A program made the position numbers and the translations under genes. The notes beneath the pieces are model-generated. The model ran no database searches. It worked only from the letters and a program-made list of their open reading frames with translations, and was not told the DNA's origin. Below, in pieces: positions 37,255 through 46,769 of a stretch of DNA of 64,000 bases (position 1 is its first letter; each line of letters starts with the position of its first letter). The stretch is from an uncultured Anaerolineales bacterium (lineage in GTDB: Bacteria; Chloroflexota; Anaerolineae; B4-G1; SLSP01), in NCBI GenBank assembly GCA_964504195.1, contig CAZDDI010000006.1:48394-112393 (forward strand). Reading direction: 5' to 3'.

Positions 37255-39390
37255 TCAGTATCCTACAGCCTTCAAAAGCAACTCTACGGTGTCACCTGGC
37301 GATGCAATCTTGAGATCCTCATAACGGGTGTCTCCCAACCGCAATGAGCCTTCTACCGAATAACACGGAGCATCTGTGGTACAGGCCGCCAAACCGGAGA
37401 TAAGATAGTAGCCCGTGATATCAGAGAACGTGCTACCTGCCGGACGCCCAATAGCATCCATCACCACCACAAAGACATTGGATTGCAAGGTCTGTGTCAG
37501 ATAAGTGAACCCATCAATTACCCCTGTGCCGGGCAACGGGGTAGGGGTAGGCTCCGGCGCCGGATTCGCAACGGTCAACGTAACCGTAAGCACTTCACTG
37601 GTATTGTTGGTATCATCGCTTTCCAGGATAATGTTGTAACGGTCTACTTCAGCCATCAACACATGCGTTCCCACTGTGGAGAAACCTTCCAGCACATACA
37701 TCGTGAATGTAATCGTCTCTCGCGCGGGCAACCCGGCAATCGCAACATAATCCACGCTCAACGTCCGGGTGGTAGGCTCGGTGGTATCGTACAAATCCAC
37801 CCAGAACAACGAAGAAACGGCCACATCACTGTCATTTTTGACCGCCACCGAAACGTAGATCGGCGCGTAAGTCCCATCGGTGAACGGCTCCTTGAACTCC
37901 AGGTTCGTGATAATCAAATCAGGCCGCGCGAGGGGTGTTGGCGTCGGTGTAGGAGCCACATAACAGGGCGCATCGAATGTCACGCTGTAAGTCGCCAGGG
38001 CCACGTCTGGATGTTTCTTATCGGTGGCATCCATCCGAATCGTATGCGTCCCAGCGGTGATATTGCGCGCAAAATCCAGCGTAAAATTGGCCGTGCCGAT
38101 TTTGCCATGATCCTGAATCACCGGGGTAGGGCCATCATCATAGAAGACCTGAATGTAGTTACCAATAGGCCAATTGTACGCACTCAGAACAAAAGTCTGA
38201 TTACCGGTGGGATAACATACCTGATTCAATGTAAAGTAAGGGCCTGTCGGAACTGGCGTAGGCGTAGGATTAGCCTGCGCCTGCACTACCGCCAGGTCTT
38301 GCTGCCCGTAGCCCTGCACCAGGATCGTGTAACCCGCCGGCAGCGCCGGGACGCCGGAGAACGTGAAGCGATTGTTCCCCGCCACCGCCACCGATTGCTG
38401 ATAGCCGCTCTGCACCACCCGCAGCGTTACCATGTTGCCGCCCTGCGCATACCCCGCTACCGTCGTCGCCCCGGCCAACACGGGCTTATCAATGTTGATT
38501 GGGACAGGCGTGGGTGTCGGGTTGCTCGGATCGGGGGTGGGCGTAGGCGTAGCCTCCGGACAAGGACTTACAAACGTCCGGCTGTACGTCGTCACAGCTG
38601 CATCCGGATGTTTTTGGTTGGTGGAATCTATCCGAATCGTATGCGTCCCCTCGGTAACATTCACAACAAAGCTGGTTGTAAAGTTGGGGCTACCGAGCTT
38701 GCCATAATCCCGTATCACCGGGTTCGTCCCGCCATCATAGAAGACCTGGATGTACTTGCCGACGGGCCAGTTGTACCCGTAGAGGATAATCGTCTGCGTA
38801 CCGGCAGGATAACAGGTCTGGCTAGTCGTAAAATACGGGCCGGTGGGTGTTGGGGTAGCTTCCCCACCACCGTCGCCCGGCGGCGCAGGGGCCGGAGCCG
38901 GGTCCCCGCCACCTGGCGGCACAGGGCCTTCCGGCGGCGGGGTCGTGATAATCGTTCCTACGGACTGAATTGTGCGCGCTGCCTGCGTATCGAGCAAAAT
39001 CGCCCCTACCAACGGATCGAACAAAGGCGTAAGCGGGCGCACCGGATACTGCACGCGCACCAGCACCCGATCCCCCGGCGCAACCGCCATGTAATCCGTA
39101 TGCGGGTCTTGATCTGGGCCGGCATCGTATTGCACCCACAGGTTGAAATCCGGATCGCTCTCCGCCACCAGAATCACATACTCCTGCGCCCGTCCACGAA
39201 TACCCTCATAGTCACGCGGATTGGTGATCCCATACCGCGTCCCTTCGCGAACAGCATTGTACAAGCTAGAGTAAATCACAAAAATACGCCCAAACTCCAA
39301 AATCCCCACCACAATCATCAAGAGCAAGGGCAAAATCAAGGCAAACTCTACCAGTCCTTGACCGTGCGCTAATTGCTTGAGCTTTTTCAT
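37255..39390 (-). CDS. Large TadE-domain surface protein with duplicated Ig-like modules and a CARDB-like domain
   Basis: GQGLVEFALILP..AVREGTRYG; two copies of PTGPYFT..CYP.G.QT..YNWP.G.YIQVFYD; RPDLIITNL..E.NN. Confidence 0.85.
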   Translation of the reverse strand: MKKLKQLAHGQGLVEFALILPLLLMIVVGILEFGRIFVIYSSLYNAVREGTRYGITNPRDYEGIRGRAQEYVILVAESDPDFNLWVQYDAGPDQDPHTDYMAVAPGDRVLVRVQYPVRPLTPLFDPLVGAILLDTQAARTIQSVGTIITTPPPEGPVPPGGGDPAPAPAPPGDGGGEATPTPTGPYFTTSQTCYPAGTQTIILYGYNWPVGKYIQVFYDGGTNPVIRDYGKLGSPNFTTSFVVNVTEGTHTIRIDSTNQKHPDAAVTTYSRTFVSPCPEATPTPTPDPSNPTPTPVPINIDKPVLAGATTVAGYAQGGNMVTLRVVQSGYQQSVAVAGNNRFTFSGVPALPAGYTILVQGYGQQDLAVVQAQANPTPTPVPTGPYFTLNQVCYPTGNQTFVLSAYNWPIGNYIQVFYDDGPTPVIQDHGKIGTANFTLDFARNITAGTHTIRMDATDKKHPDVALATYSVTFDAPCYVAPTPTPTPLARPDLIITNLEFKEPFTDGTYAPIYVSVAVKNDSDVAVSSLFWVDLYDTTEPTTRTLSVDYVAIAGLPARETITFTMYVLEGFSTVGTHVLMAEVDRYNIILESDDTNNTSEVLTVTLTVANPAPEPTPTPLPGTGVIDGFTYLTQTLQSNVFVVVMDAIGRPAGSTFSDITGYYLISGLAACTTDAPCYSVEGSLRLGDTRYEDLKIASPGDTVELLLKAVGY

Positions 39391-39613
39391 TGTGTCCACC
39401 CCTCTTCCGGTTAAACAAATATCACATGCACGAGCGCCCTCGTGCATTCTTACTGTTTTCTATCTTTAGAATCGCATCCCATAGCAGAAAAGTCACGCCC
39501 TCTTTGTCAAATTAGTACAATAGTACTATTAAAACATATTCCACGTGACTAGACGAAGTTAAGAAACGATTATACAATTGAGGGTACACAGAACTTCCTA
39601 TAAGGAACCCTTT

Positions 39614-40204
39614 ATGTACCCGGCAATTGACATTGACGAGCAACAAATTATACAAAAAGCGGTTAAAGGCAACCAGGCGGCACTCGGAGCGATCTATGAG
39701 CAGCACGCCGACGCAGTCTACCGCTACATGCTCTATCGCACCGGAGATCATCACATTGCTGAAGACATCACAGCTGAAGTCTTCGCCGATATGATTACCG
39801 CAATCCGCAGTTACCGCGATATGGGCGTGCCATTTCGGGCCTGGCTGTTTCGCATCGCGCGCGCACGCCTGGTAGACCACTGGCGCAAAATGCAACGCCG
39901 GGTTGAACAACGGATTACATTCTCAGAAGACGTTGAAGAATTCTTACTTGGGGACTCGCTCGAAGACCGTCACGCTTACGATGACTTACTTGAGGCTTTG
40001 CAATACCTGACGCCGGCAGAACGCGAAATTATACTGTTGCGCTATGCCGCCGATATGGACAACGACGACATCGCCACCGCCGTGCAAAGCAATGCCAATG
40101 CGGTCAAAAGCATGATGTATCGCGCTCTTAAAAAACTTCGTACCATTCTACATAACAAAGCAAAAACGCTGGAAGGTGGAACCAATGATGAGGCAACCGA
40201 ATAA
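39614..40204 (+). CDS. ECF (sigma-70 group 4) RNA polymerase sigma factor
   Basis: AEDITAEVF, FRAWLFRIAR, REIILLRY..VKSMMYRALKKLR. Confidence 0.92.
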   Translation: MYPAIDIDEQQIIQKAVKGNQAALGAIYEQHADAVYRYMLYRTGDHHIAEDITAEVFADMITAIRSYRDMGVPFRAWLFRIARARLVDHWRKMQRRVEQRITFSEDVEEFLLGDSLEDRHAYDDLLEALQYLTPAEREIILLRYAADMDNDDIATAVQSNANAVKSMMYRALKKLRTILHNKAKTLEGGTNDEATE

Positions 40205-41312
40205 TGTAAGCCTTAGTTCAGAAGATAGTAGCATTCAGGCGCAGTTGGAGGCCTTGGGACGCCCGCAGCTATCGCCACAACACCGGCAACGCATCTGGCG
40301 CGAGGCCCGGCATCGCGCGCAGCTCCAAGCCGCTCCCAAGCCAGCCCGGTTCTCTTTATTCCGGCTGGTACCGGCACGTTCATTGGCGGCACTTGTTCTA
40401 GTGCTGACGCTTTTGCTCGGCTCCAATGTGACCGTACTCGCTGCCGGTAACAGCGTTCCCGGTGAGGCACTGTATCCGGTCAAACGCGGCCTGGAAACGA
40501 TGCAACACTCGCTGACCACGGCAGAAGCGCGTCCCATGCTCACCCTGAACTTTCTGGATCGCCGGGTGCATGAGGCCGTCCGGCTGGTCGGCACATATCG
40601 CCCCGTGCCGGAAACTCTGCTGGATGAGATTGCCCTGCTTTTAAACGAAGTGACCGTCTACTCCGACTTGTGGCAGCAGACCGATGTCCTGGCAACCCTC
40701 TCCGCGATCAACATCCAACTGACGGTAGTGGCACGCCAACATCCTGAAGTACAACAACTGGGCACCCTGGCCGGTAGTTCCCGCGCACTCCTGACCCGCG
40801 CCATCGAAGCAGCCGGCGTCACCTTCCCCGCAGAAGATGTGCCACCTATCGGAGTATCACCCACAGCGGCAGATATAGATATTACAGAACCCAACGAATT
40901 AATACCGAAAGAGAACGTCACGCCCCATGCACCGACTCAGACGGCGCAACCGCCAGCCCCCCCCACCCCCACCGCTACCGGTGTACCCCCTGAGAAAACA
41001 GCCACACCACCACCAACGCCTACCACACCACCCGCCATTGGCGAAGATAACCCGCCGCCCGGACTGGGCGGCACCCCGCCGGGCCAGGGCGATGCCCCGC
41101 CCCCCGGACAGGGTACACCACCCGGACAAGAGGAGATTCCGCCGGGACAAGTTGATCCACCACCCAGCCAGGATGAGACCCCGCCAGACGGGGAAGATAA
41201 TCCGCCGCCCGGACAGGGCGGCACCCCGCCGGGCCAGGGCGACGCCCCGCCCCCCGGACAGGGCACGCCACCGGGACAAGATACCCCCCCCGGACAAGAT
41301 AAAAAAGATTAA
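40185..41312 (+). CDS. Anti-sigma-like membrane protein (DUF5667-like) with a PPGQ-repeat tail
   Basis: TM, SVPGEALYPVKRGLE, duplicated GEDNPPPG.GGTPPGQGDAPPPGQGTPPGQ. Confidence 0.75.
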   Translation: MMRQPNNVSLSSEDSSIQAQLEALGRPQLSPQHRQRIWREARHRAQLQAAPKPARFSLFRLVPARSLAALVLVLTLLLGSNVTVLAAGNSVPGEALYPVKRGLETMQHSLTTAEARPMLTLNFLDRRVHEAVRLVGTYRPVPETLLDEIALLLNEVTVYSDLWQQTDVLATLSAINIQLTVVARQHPEVQQLGTLAGSSRALLTRAIEAAGVTFPAEDVPPIGVSPTAADIDITEPNELIPKENVTPHAPTQTAQPPAPPTPTATGVPPEKTATPPPTPTTPPAIGEDNPPPGLGGTPPGQGDAPPPGQGTPPGQEEIPPGQVDPPPSQDETPPDGEDNPPPGQGGTPPGQGDAPPPGQGTPPGQDTPPGQDKKD

Positions 41313-43829: not shown

Positions 43830-44180
43830 CCACAGATCCGCGACGGATTAAATTTTGCAATTCACCATTCGCTATTTTCAAGGGAATTCCTCATTAACTG
43901 GCGTTCACCAGCGGTTGGATGAAAATGTAACGCGAACTTTCAGCGCATGAATGCGCCGTTCGCAACCACGCGAAGCAGACGCTTCGCGCTACACTAGTTT
44001 TGATTCGCCATTCGCCATTTTCAAGGGAATTCCTCATTAACCGGTGGTTCACCAGCGCTTGGATGAAAAATAAGGGAACTGGCGTTCCCCTCAAAGCCAG
44101 CGTGCTCAGAGCGGATCGCCAGATCCGCGATCGGTTAAGTTTTGAGATTCGCCATTCACAATTCGCCATTCGCCATTTTC
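43830..44180. repeat. Composite intergenic repeat; inverted homolog at ~59270-59490
   Basis: Shared blocks GCGGTTGGATGAAAATGTAACGCGAAC, GGGAACTGGCGTTCCCCTC and CAGCGTGCTCAGAGCGGATCG; ATTCGCC heptamer runs. Confidence 0.7.
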
Positions 44181-44195
44181 AGAGGAGGCGCAAGC

Positions 44196-45311
44196 GTGAC
44201 ACAGAACGGACGCACGGTTTTTCCTTTTACGGCTATCGTCAATCAAGAGCGCATGAAGCGCGCGCTCATTCTCAACGCGATCAACTTCCGCATTGGCGGG
44301 GTGCTGATTCGCGGGGAGCGCGGCACGGCCAAATCCACCGCCGCCCGCGCCCTAGCTGCGCTGCTACCGGATATCGAAGTGGTCGCTGATGGCCCGTTCG
44401 GCTGCGATCCCGATCAACCGGCGACCTGGTGTACCACCTGCCGCGAGCGTGCTGCGCGCGGCGAGACGCTCCCCCGCCTCACCCGGCGCGTCCCCTTCGT
44501 AGACTTGCCCGTTGGCGCAACTGAAGACCGCGTTGTGGGCACGCTCGACATCGAACGCGCCATCCAGAAGGGCGAGCGACACTTCGAGCCGGGCATCCTC
44601 GCCGCTGCCAATCGCGGCATCCTCTATGTGGACGAGGTCAACCTGCTCGATGATCACATTGTAGATGTACTGCTCGATGCCGCCGCGATGGGCGTCAATA
44701 TCGTCGAGCGTGAGGGCATCTCGTTCCAGCACCCCGCGCGCTTCATTCTGGTCGGCACAATGAACCCTGAAGAGGGCGATCTGCGCCCGCAACTGCTGGA
44801 TCGCTTCGCGTTGTGCGTGGATGTGCTGGGTGTCCACAGCGCGCCGGCCCGCATGGACATCATGGAGCGCAACCTGGCCTTCGAGCAGGACCCGCAGGGC
44901 TTCTACACACAATGGCTACCGCAGGAGCGGGCGCTGGCGCAGCGCATCGAGGAGGCACGCGCGCTATTACCGCAGGTGCATTATTCGCGCGGCGATCTGG
45001 CGACGATTGCGGTGATGATGGATGATTTGGGCGTGGACGGCCATCGCGCCGATTTGGTCATTCTCAAAACCGCCGCCGCGCACGCCGCGTGGGAGGGGCG
45101 TATCCGCCTCACCGACCATGACATCATGCTGGCAGCGGAGCTCGCGCTACCGCACCGCCTCAAGCGTAAGCCGTTCGATGAAAACCAGACTTCACTGCAA
45201 CAGATCGAAAGCCGCGTGGGAACGGCCCGCGAGCAGGCTGAACAAGAACAGCCTACCGATTCCGCGCCCGCCACGCTGTCTGCGCACGAGGGCGAGTCAA
45301 AAAAAGCCTGA
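44196..45311 (+). CDS. ChlI/BchI-like AAA+ chelatase subunit (short product of a frameshifted chlD-like gene)
   Basis: FPFTAIVNQE, GERGTAKST, LYVDEVNLL, GTMNPEEG; GTG start 44196 after AGAGGAGG. Confidence 0.92.
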   Translation: MTQNGRTVFPFTAIVNQERMKRALILNAINFRIGGVLIRGERGTAKSTAARALAALLPDIEVVADGPFGCDPDQPATWCTTCRERAARGETLPRLTRRVPFVDLPVGATEDRVVGTLDIERAIQKGERHFEPGILAAANRGILYVDEVNLLDDHIVDVLLDAAAMGVNIVEREGISFQHPARFILVGTMNPEEGDLRPQLLDRFALCVDVLGVHSAPARMDIMERNLAFEQDPQGFYTQWLPQERALAQRIEEARALLPQVHYSRGDLATIAVMMDDLGVDGHRADLVILKTAAAHAAWEGRIRLTDHDIMLAAELALPHRLKRKPFDENQTSLQQIESRVGTAREQAEQEQPTDSAPATLSAHEGESKKA

Positions 45312-46273
45312 GTCCTGAGGCGCAACCGGACGCCACGCAGGAACCGGGCGCGCCTCAGGGTGAGCAAGCCGCACAAACGCCCCCCACCTGGCCCACCGAT
45401 GGCAAGTGGTGGGAGGGCGGGCAGCCGGTTGCCGTCGGCGATATCTTCGATCCGCGCCGCCTGGATACCCCACTCGACCGGCTGGAGCGCTCCACTGGCG
45501 GACGGCGCAGCCGCACCGTCACCACGCGCAAGCGTGGACGCTACATCTACGCGCGCCCCTCACCCCGCAACGCCTCCGATCTGGCCCTGGATGCCACGCT
45601 CCGCGCCGCTGCGCCCTTCCAGCGGCAACGCCATGATGCCGACCCCGATGGCCCGGCGTTGCGCCTCGGCCCGCAAGATTACCAGCGCAAAGTGCGTGTA
45701 CGCCGGGCGGGGAACTTCATCCTGTTCGTAGTGGATGCCTCGTGGTCTATGGCCGTATCTGAGCGGATGGAGGCCACCAAAGGCGCGATCATGTCGCTGC
45801 TGACCGATGCCTATCAGCGACGGGACACGGTGGGCATGGTCGTATTCCACAAGGATCGCGCGCTCGAAGTGCTGCCGCCCACCAACAGCGTGGAGCTGGC
45901 GCAGCGCCTGCTCGCCAACCTGCCGGTGGGCGGCAAGACGCCGCTGGCGGCGGGGCTGTGGCTCTCGCTGCAAATCGTCCAACACGAGCGCCGCCGCTCC
46001 CCGGAGGTCGTCCCCCTCATGGTCATCCTCACCGACGGCGCGGGCAATGTCTCGCTGGGAGAGCTGCCCGCCCAAGAGGAAGCATACCGTATCGCCGCGC
46101 AAATCCGCGAGGCCAAAATCCGCGCAGTGGTCATCAACATGGAAACCGCAGCCTTTGATCAAGGGTTGGCGCAATCGCTCGCCGAGCATCTGGACGGGCC
46201 GTGCTACTCGCTGGCAGGGCTACAGGCGGATACGCTCCTGCGCACCGTGCAGGAGGAGCTGGCGGGGCGGTGA
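45299..46273 (+). CDS. -1 frame continuation: ChlD/BchD-type linker plus vWA domain
   Basis: -1 frame open from the A7 run: ..GRRSRT..RGRYIYARP..DLALDATLRAAAPFQ..FVVDASWSM..GGKTPLAAGL..LTDG; no in-frame start before 45659. Confidence 0.8.
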   Translation, partial: KKSLSPEAQPDATQEPGAPQGEQAAQTPPTWPTDGKWWEGGQPVAVGDIFDPRRLDTPLDRLERSTGGRRSRTVTTRKRGRYIYARPSPRNASDLALDATLRAAAPFQRQRHDADPDGPALRLGPQDYQRKVRVRRAGNFILFVVDASWSMAVSERMEATKGAIMSLLTDAYQRRDTVGMVVFHKDRALEVLPPTNSVELAQRLLANLPVGGKTPLAAGLWLSLQIVQHERRRSPEVVPLMVILTDGAGNVSLGELPAQEEAYRIAAQIREAKIRAVVINMETAAFDQGLAQSLAEHLDGPCYSLAGLQADTLLRTVQEELAGR

Positions 46274-46277
46274 TGGG

Positions 46278-46769
46278 GTGATAACAAACGCAACCATACA
46301 CGAACTTTGCGCGCGGGTGGGCGCGGGGCTGCTGCAGCGCGGCTGGCGGTTGGCGGTGGCCGAATCCTGCACGGGCGGACTGGTGGGGCATTGGATCACG
46401 CAGCAGCCCGGCAGCTCGGCGTACTTCGTGGGGGGCGTGATTGCCTATGCCGATGCGGTCAAACAGGGGCTGCTGGGCGTGTCCCCGAACAGCCTGGCAC
46501 AGTGGGGCGCGGTAAGCGGGCCGGTGGCGTTGGAGATGGCGCTCGGCGCGCAACGGCGGCTCGGCGTCGAGGCGGCGGTCAGCGTGACGGGCATCGCCGG
46601 GCCGGGCGGCGGGACGCCGCACAAGCCGGTGGGGCTGGTCTTCGTGGGTATCGCGCTACCCGGCGAGCGCTGGGTCTGGCGCGCACGCTGGGACGGGAAT
46701 CGCGCGGAGAACAAGCAACACTCGGCGCAGTTTGCGTTGGAGCGGCTGGCGTGGCTGTTGAGGGTGTGA
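46278..46769 (+). CDS. CinA C-terminal domain protein (NMN deamidase-like)
   Basis: AVAESCTGGL, GAVSGPVALEMALG, SVTGIAGPGGG..KPVGLV. Confidence 0.9.
   Translation: MITNATIHELCARVGAGLLQRGWRLAVAESCTGGLVGHWITQQPGSSAYFVGGVIAYADAVKQGLLGVSPNSLAQWGAVSGPVALEMALGAQRRLGVEAAVSVTGIAGPGGGTPHKPVGLVFVGIALPGERWVWRARWDGNRAENKQHSAQFALERLAWLLRV

Follow-up and report, generated by a model that had tools for sequence, protein, structure and literature searches.

Evidence for programmed −1 recoding of a chlD-like gene in an uncultured Anaerolineae bacterium in whose assembly no large chelatase subunit was found

A 64,000-nt stretch of contig 6 from an uncultured Anaerolineae (Chloroflexota) bacterium, referred to here as the window, contains a chlD-like gene whose two halves lie in different reading frames, the second half being displaced by −1 relative to the first at a run of seven adenines. 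This run is very probably a genuine programmed recoding site, of the type present in frameshifted chlD (fs-chlD) genes, and two products would arise from it: a short ChlI-like AAA+ ATPase and a longer ChlD-like protein. An initial annotation, made from the letters of the window, had proposed that one chlD-like gene undergoes programmed −1 frameshifting. This proposal was supported by an end-to-end match of the fused product to TIGR02442, by a conserved −1 frame devoid of a start codon of its own, by recurrence of the split in most related loci and by a downstream hairpin exhibiting covariation.

The gene and its candidate recoding signal consist of the following elements.

44181..44187 (+): Shine-Dalgarno (SD) sequence GAGGAGG, read in the sequence, 8 nt 5′ of the GTG start
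GTG44196..TGA45311 (+): 0-frame open reading frame (ORF) for the short product, a 371-aa ChlI-like AAA+ ATPase according to its translation and its Pfam, TIGR02030 and PDB matches
45288..45292 (+): SD-like GAGGG inside the ORF, located 6 nt 5′ of the heptamer, a possible upstream stimulator
45299..45305 (+): A7 run that forms an in-phase (0-frame) slippery heptamer, A_AAA_AAA, recognized from the sequence and from the register in the clade of relatives
45309..45311 (+): 0-frame stop TGA, inside the spacer, one codon past the slippery site
45305..46273 (+): −1-frame continuation from AGC, translated as a linker and a VWA domain, with the stop TGA at 46271-46273
45313..45360 (+): RNA hairpin predicted by folding, with an 11-bp stem and a 26-nt loop containing a small inner helix, 7-8 nt past the heptamer

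The 0-frame ORF ended in the register GAG TCA AAA AAA GCC TGA, with tcA to TGA spanning 45297-45311, and the A-run fitted the X_XXY_YYZ heptamer pattern perfectly. The −1 frame was open from 45242 to 46273, overlapping the 0-frame ORF, and the first ATG, GTG or TTG within it was located at 45659, leaving 139 codons without a start. A slip on the heptamer would generate a fusion of 692 aa with the junction ...HEGESKK/SLSPEAQ..., the predicted junction peptide of the fused product being GESKKSLSPEAQ. The initial annotation had described the 371-aa frame ending TCA AAA AAA GCC TGA with A7 at 45299-45305, a −1 frame that was open without a start of its own through a ChlD linker and VWA domain, a 10-bp stem at 45314-45359 starting 8 nt past the run, and products of 371 and 692 aa; inspection of the sequence, the translations and the fold agreed with each of these, with the addition of one U45313-G45360 pair to the stem. 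The start of the short product was also a recurrent feature, as a GGAGG was present 6 to 8 nt ahead of the equivalent GTG or ATG start in the 11 orthologous loci inspected.

Both parts of the gene encode recognizable chelatase-type modules. The short product matched the Pfam families AAA_lid_2, Mg_chelatase and AAA_5, scored 421 bits with TIGR02030 (BchI-ChlI) and covered positions 1-347 of TIGR02442, while its closest PDB structures were those of ChlI (8osf and 6l8d) and BchI (1g8p). A Walker A motif, GERGTAKS (44316-44339, residues 41-48), and a Walker B motif, YVDEVN, were present and were kept in the orthologs. Walker A was GERGTAKS in 70 of 76 relatives and GERGTGKS in 6 of 76, the former having an Ala in place of the Gly that precedes the Lys in ChlI/BchI. 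The −1-encoded part began with an acidic, Pro-rich linker containing the conserved segments WPTDGKWWEGG and RGRYIY..DLALDATLRAAAP and continued into a VWA domain, whose metal-ion-dependent adhesion site (MIDAS), DASWS, was detected in 80 of 81 loci. Matches to this part were obtained with Pfam VWA_2 and VWA, with positions 358-640 of TIGR02442 and with the BchD VWA structure 2x31, and tblastn alignments started at its residue 1 in many loci. As a fused protein, the 692 aa aligned in one stretch with positions 1-640 of the 641 positions of TIGR02442 ('putative cobaltochelatase'), with a score of 777.7 bits.

The same arrangement might be read as two separate genes, with no fusion being made and the VWA protein being started on its own through either internal initiation or translational coupling. 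Loci of this kind are usually annotated as two adjacent genes in the RefSeq style (PMC3711429), and the TTG at 45659 could begin a VWA-only protein of 204 aa. No ATG, GTG or TTG occurs, however, in the 120 codons that separate the slip site from 45659, and yet these codons are conserved as protein, including WPTDGKWWEGG, RGRYIY and DLALDATLRAAAP. This start-less stretch aligns with TIGR02442, in its ChlD linker, from position 358 onward, and continuous orthologs fuse exactly the same parts. Separate initiation of the VWA protein was, in our estimate, so improbable as to be almost negligible.

Relatives of the gene were collected by using the C-terminal, −1-encoded part as a query against one genome per species, which yielded 80 loci. 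The frame relation at these loci was determined by tblastn with both halves, and the 75 loci with both halves were included in a tree. The Chloroflexota label was attached to 79 of the 80 loci, mostly Anaerolineae, with Thermoflexus/Thermoflexales, Promineifilaceae, Ardenticatenaceae and Aggregatilineales among the taxa represented. A −1 split at an in-phase A-run was observed in 71 of the 75 loci, and the gene was continuous in the other four. Orthologs that are continuous and without the signal, which the initial annotation had named as a ground for refutation, were not encountered among these loci: the four continuous genes kept an A9 run at the same site, equivalent to one extra A relative to the canonical split gene.

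The split loci exhibited two types of junction. Type 1, comprising 33 loci including the window, had an A7 or A8 run and, in every case, the register xxA AAA AAA Gxx. The stop was located 3 nt past the A-run in 31 of these 33 loci and was mostly TAG, and a covarying hairpin of 11-12 bp, GGTTGAGGCG...CGCCTCAACC, began 7-8 nt past the run. Columns A4-A10 and G11 of alignment A1 were invariant. Type 2 was represented by 38 loci with runs of A9-A11, for example GTA AAA AAA AAG CCC TAG, and no conserved hairpin was found nearby in these 38 loci. When the joined proteins were placed in a maximum-likelihood tree, the 33 rows of type 1 formed a single clade, with a value of 100 in the SH-like approximate likelihood ratio test (SH-aLRT). 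The window fell within this clade as the sister of L001 (83% identity), the continuous A9 genes were sister to type 1, and genes with A9 or longer runs made up the other half of the tree. The A-run, the stop and the hairpin, whose conservation in orthologs the initial annotation had singled out as a check, were thus conserved in the 33-locus clade (the stop in 31 of 33).

One locus in the tree, L056 (DATHSI010000109.1), bore the label Candidatus Sulfomarinibacteraceae (Acidobacteriota), and its fs-chlD was nested deep in the Chloroflexota clade beside L032 with very short branches. This locus is probably a mis-binned contig or belongs to a mislabelled metagenome-assembled genome.

These comparisons also bear on whether the true run is A8, the split being due to faulty assembly or sequencing, or whether a recent mutation has inactivated the gene, such that the gene is plainly continuous or dead. 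Miscalled homopolymers are frequent, this draft assembly consists of 137 contigs, and continuous genes occur in ∼69 of 226 genomes of the class. Set against this, the same phase and hairpin were present in 33 independent assemblies of the clade, with the stop one codon past the run in 31 of 33, and both genomes of the same family were likewise split. Furthermore, the catalytic and MIDAS motifs were intact in both halves, and the genome contained no other ChlI to provide the short subunit. The support for a count of seven A's in this assembly is of this comparative kind, and we regard an error or a pseudogene as very improbable.

Folding and covariation analyses were performed on the region downstream of the run. 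The stem is formed by CCTGAGGCGC (45314-45323) and GCGCCTCAGG (45350-45359), together with the U45313-G45360 pair, begins 8 nt past A7 and had a centroid fold energy of −31.5 kcal/mol. Base pairs were counted in an alignment of 34 type-1 junctions, with slid-arm controls and 500 shuffles. Standard pairing was observed in 88.1% of cells for the predicted stem versus 31-41% when the 3′ arm was slid by 1-3 columns. Changes on both sides were detected in 7 of the 12 stem pairs, and the observed covariation score was reached by none of the 500 shuffles. Among the compensatory changes, the window and L001 had CC...GG versus GU...AC in the others, while L028, L030, L039 and L070 had GAGCCG/CGGCUC versus GAGGCG/CGCCUC in the others. 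No Rfam family was matched by a scan of 45150-45500 at E≤1. As judged from these comparative data, the downstream hairpin is an RNA structure.

A second conserved element was located on the other side of the heptamer. The 33-locus clade had the consensus CcGGgGAGGacCg ∼7 nt 5′ of the heptamer, within a linker that was otherwise poorly conserved; GGGGAGGA was conserved at this distance, and the copy in the window was GAGGG, 6 nt upstream. By its likeness to the corresponding element of dnaX, this SD-like motif may act as a frameshift stimulator.

The A7 run was also considered as a statistical oddity in its own right and was rejected as such, since the window contained six A7 runs versus an expectation of 7.5. 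As A7 is commonplace and the fold energy alone is modest, the weight of the signal comes from its position, its phase and its conservation in relatives.

Slippage by RNA polymerase is known for runs of ∼9 or more A or T residues. By adding one A, the polymerase could generate a subpopulation of mRNA in which the two frames are fused. Such transcriptional slippage would suit the sister clades, which have A9-A11 without a conserved hairpin, and the continuous genes, which keep A9; moreover, the published efficiency rises with run length (PMC3711429). The window, however, has only A7, and in its clade the short run is accompanied by an SD-like motif and by a hairpin that covaries and begins 7-8 nt away, as expected of a ribosomal stimulator. 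Neither element would be of help to a polymerase by which the hairpin is still to be transcribed. Transcriptional slippage was, therefore, considered unlikely as the explanation for the window, and we infer that the slippage is ribosomal. Ribosomal −1 frameshifting was favored for the window clade because of the combination of a short run, a conserved hairpin and an SD-like motif, while polymerase slippage is plausible in the A9-A11 relatives.

With ribosomal frameshifting, standard decoding from GTG44196 to TGA45311 would yield the 371-aa ChlI-like AAA+ ATPase. A fraction of the ribosomes, with lysyl-tRNAs on AAA-AAA, would slip by −1 on A_AAA_AAA at 45299-45305. The hairpin located 8 nt downstream would probably promote this slip, and the upstream SD-like GAGG may contribute. 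The slipped ribosomes would continue in the −1 frame with AGC CTG... as far as 46273, producing a ChlD-like protein of 692 aa in which the same AAA+ module is followed by the linker and the VWA domain with its MIDAS. A mixed AAA+ ring complex of both products may be expected from the analogy to ChlI/ChlD and CobS/CobT, and the efficiency of frameshifting would set the ratio of the short to the long product. Reporter assays of frameshift genes (fs-genes) of the chelatase family gave 63% frameshifting for A11, 40% for A9 and 10% for A_AAA_AAA, i.e., 7 A's (PMC3711429), and the efficiency in the window may be similar to the 10% of this last cassette in the E. coli reporter.

Several observations weighed against this reading. 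The score of the fused product was 1.7 bits under the curated cut-off of TIGR02442 (777.7 versus 779.45 bits), and scores were well below the cut-offs for TIGR02031 (BchD; 451.8 versus 499.55) and TIGR02030 (BchI; 418.9-421.3 versus 466.95). The energy of the hairpin corresponded to a z-score of only −2.25 in a single GC-rich sequence, and the GAGGG of the window is a weaker SD-like motif than the copies in its relatives. Both proteins and the mRNA are, furthermore, known here from the DNA sequence alone. Finally, the arms of the hairpin are also coding in the −1 frame, and part of their conservation is due to coding constraint. RNA pairing was favored despite this constraint because the compensatory changes are not accounted for by coding.

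The assembly containing the window is a draft of 4.9 Mb in 137 contigs with an estimated completeness of 94%. No cobN or bchH had been noted in the window by the initial annotation, and a search of the whole assembly with PF02514 (CobN/ChlH), for which the controls were positive, extended this absence from the window to all 4.9 Mb. A second ChlI-type gene was not found in the assembly either. One other Mg_chelatase-family match was detected (324 bits), and we take its open frame of 558 aa to encode a YifB/ComM-type protein; the remaining hits were weak AAA+ matches. CbiC/CobH and the cobalamin synthase CobS were likewise not found in this 137-contig, 94% complete draft. As no large subunit was found, a classical (class I) Mg- or Co-chelatase was excluded for this genome. 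By analogy, the complex may work on another client, in the manner of MoxR-like AAA+/VWA machines.

The wider distribution of the gene was surveyed by counting CobN and TIGR02442-type genes in 251 evenly sampled genomes of the class. CobN was present in 18 genomes (∼7%) and a TIGR02442-type gene in 226 (∼90%), of which ∼69 were continuous and the others split. The excess of genomes with the gene (226/251) over those with CobN (18/251) points to a conserved CobN-independent function. Two CobN-positive genomes were inspected, and both contained an ortholog of the window gene with 65-68% identity and an A9 run (L091 and L093) as well as a second, continuous chlD paralog with ∼45% identity and no A-run (L090, G103:C85; L092, G047:C6). 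In G103, the paralog directly adjoined cobN; in both genomes, the A9 ortholog was located elsewhere. These arrangements are a hint that the window orthogroup is not the partner of CobN. Only the split gene was seen in three further CobN-positive genomes (G116, G139 and G182), and a role with CobN is, therefore, conceivable where CobN exists.

From these data we tentatively suggest, with somewhat less than even confidence, that the Anaerolineae chlD-like gene encodes a CobN/ChlH-independent AAA+/VWA machine acting on another client and that the route to its two products has been exchanged within the orthogroup. The window clade would use a dnaX-like ribosomal cassette, while the sister clades, with A9-A11, would probably use polymerase slippage, with either frame polarity.

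Clustering of the ORFs within 4 kb of chlD across the 80 loci did not reveal a conserved partner neighbor, the best cluster covering 18 loci. A CinA-C/PncC-like gene was the sole recurrent direct downstream neighbor on the same strand, occurring in 17-20 loci of the close clade and being absent in more-distant ones, and is probably an operon neighbor by descent. Its copy in the window is as follows.

46278-46769 (+): CinA C-terminal/PncC-like gene with the motif AESCTGG and a GTG start 5 nt past the chlD stop

Further recurrent neighbors of chlD resembled housekeeping or regulatory genes, as judged on sequence only. A scan for promoters and terminators around the chlD-like gene gave nothing informative. 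The leader just 5′ of the SD sequence and the GTG start contains, at 44147-44180, three copies of the unit ATTCGCCATT in direct orientation. Short direct repeats with other sequences occupy the same leader position in several orthologs, being CGACTAA-like in L003 and TTTGAC/TTCGAC-like in L002 and L015. The repeat at 44147-44180 may serve as an operator or else be an intergenic repeat typical of the lineage.

Two other regions of the window were read from the ORF list. At 39578-41312, the ORF of a likely sigma factor overlaps the start of a 378-aa ORF with a long, repetitive Pro-rich tail of PPGQG.../TPPGQ... units, and these ORFs look like a sigma/anti-sigma pair. On the reverse strand, at 37255-39447, a 730-aa ORF has an internal duplication of a module of ∼200 aa behind a TadE/pilus-like N-terminal segment, the module having the pattern TGPYFT..CYP.G.QT....YNWP.G.YIQVFYD...THTIR.D.

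The annotation should merge both called ORFs into a single recoded gene from which two products arise, and the presence of this chlD-like locus is no evidence for cobalamin or chlorophyll synthesis. The case adds a well-documented example of fs-chlD with a clean tripartite signal and covariation, and it adds numbers to the question, raised in the literature, of which task a ChlI/ChlD complex performs when the large chelatase subunit is missing. As both the phenomenon and the question are in print, the finding will not surprise a specialist.

Frameshifted chlD genes, including those in genomes without a large chelatase subunit, have already been published between 2013 and 2022, as the initial annotation had stated for prokaryotic chlD frameshifting in general (PMC3711429, PMC9227772). 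A −1-frameshift 'magnesium chelatase' gene cluster was defined by Antonov et al. in 2013 and included the Chloroflexi genus Herpetosiphon (PMC3711429). Kuznetsov, Milenkin and Antonov reported in 2022 that fs-chlD is found in all major prokaryotic phyla and that its signals usually consist of AT-rich slippery sites and downstream RNA structures (PMC9227772). They termed 'stage 1' those genomes with fs-chlD that lack a large subunit and the chlorophyll or B12 pathways, such as Spirochaeta thermophila and Brevefilum fermentans (Chloroflexi), found fs-chlD with a separate chlI in several Anaerolineaceae, and noted that it is not known what the complex does when the large subunit is missing (PMC9227772). 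The absence of cobN/bchH, from which the initial annotation had drawn its question of partner and substrate, is real, as CobN was not found anywhere in the assembly, and such a genotype is already published under this heading.

The window shares with fs-chlD genes the ChlI-like AAA+ ORF, the poly-A site, the −1-encoded linker and VWA domain, and the downstream RNA structure. Its A_AAA_AAA is identical to the 7-A cassette of the 2013 reporter assays (10% frameshifting), and its genotype is that of 'stage 1', as in Brevefilum fermentans of the same class. The difference is one of lineage only, as the chlD of the window groups with Thermoflexus/Thermoflexales sequences. The 2013 and 2022 fs-chlD papers describe the signals in general terms, whereas a covarying hairpin, an SD-like motif and an A7/A8 run are detailed here for one clade. 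Further work on the fs-chlD family was reportedly carried out by Antonov in 2020.

A similar layout is present in dnaX of E. coli, in which an SD-like element, the A-rich heptamer A_AAA_AAG and a 3′ stem-loop give rise to tau and gamma, two products that share AAA+ and act in one complex. The cassette of the window clade resembles this tripartite arrangement. The slip generates the short product in dnaX, however, but would generate the long product here, and the proteins are unrelated beyond the AAA+ fold. At the protein level, the two products resemble ChlI/ChlD (BchI/BchD) of Mg-chelatase and the aerobic cobaltochelatase subunits (CobS/CobT or ChlI/ChlD-type), in which an AAA+ small subunit is combined with a medium subunit of AAA+, linker and VWA with MIDAS. 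The window differs from the Mg-chelatase and CobNST systems in that no ChlH/BchH/CobN or corrin-pathway markers were found in its genome and in that both subunits would come from one gene. In MoxR-type AAA+/VWA pairs, such as CbbQ/CbbO, NorQ/NorD and RavA/ViaA, an AAA+ ring and a VWA/MIDAS adaptor act on a separate client protein. While the AAA+ subfamily differs, a ChlI/ChlD complex that lacks a large subunit may plausibly be compared with these pairs as a working analogy.

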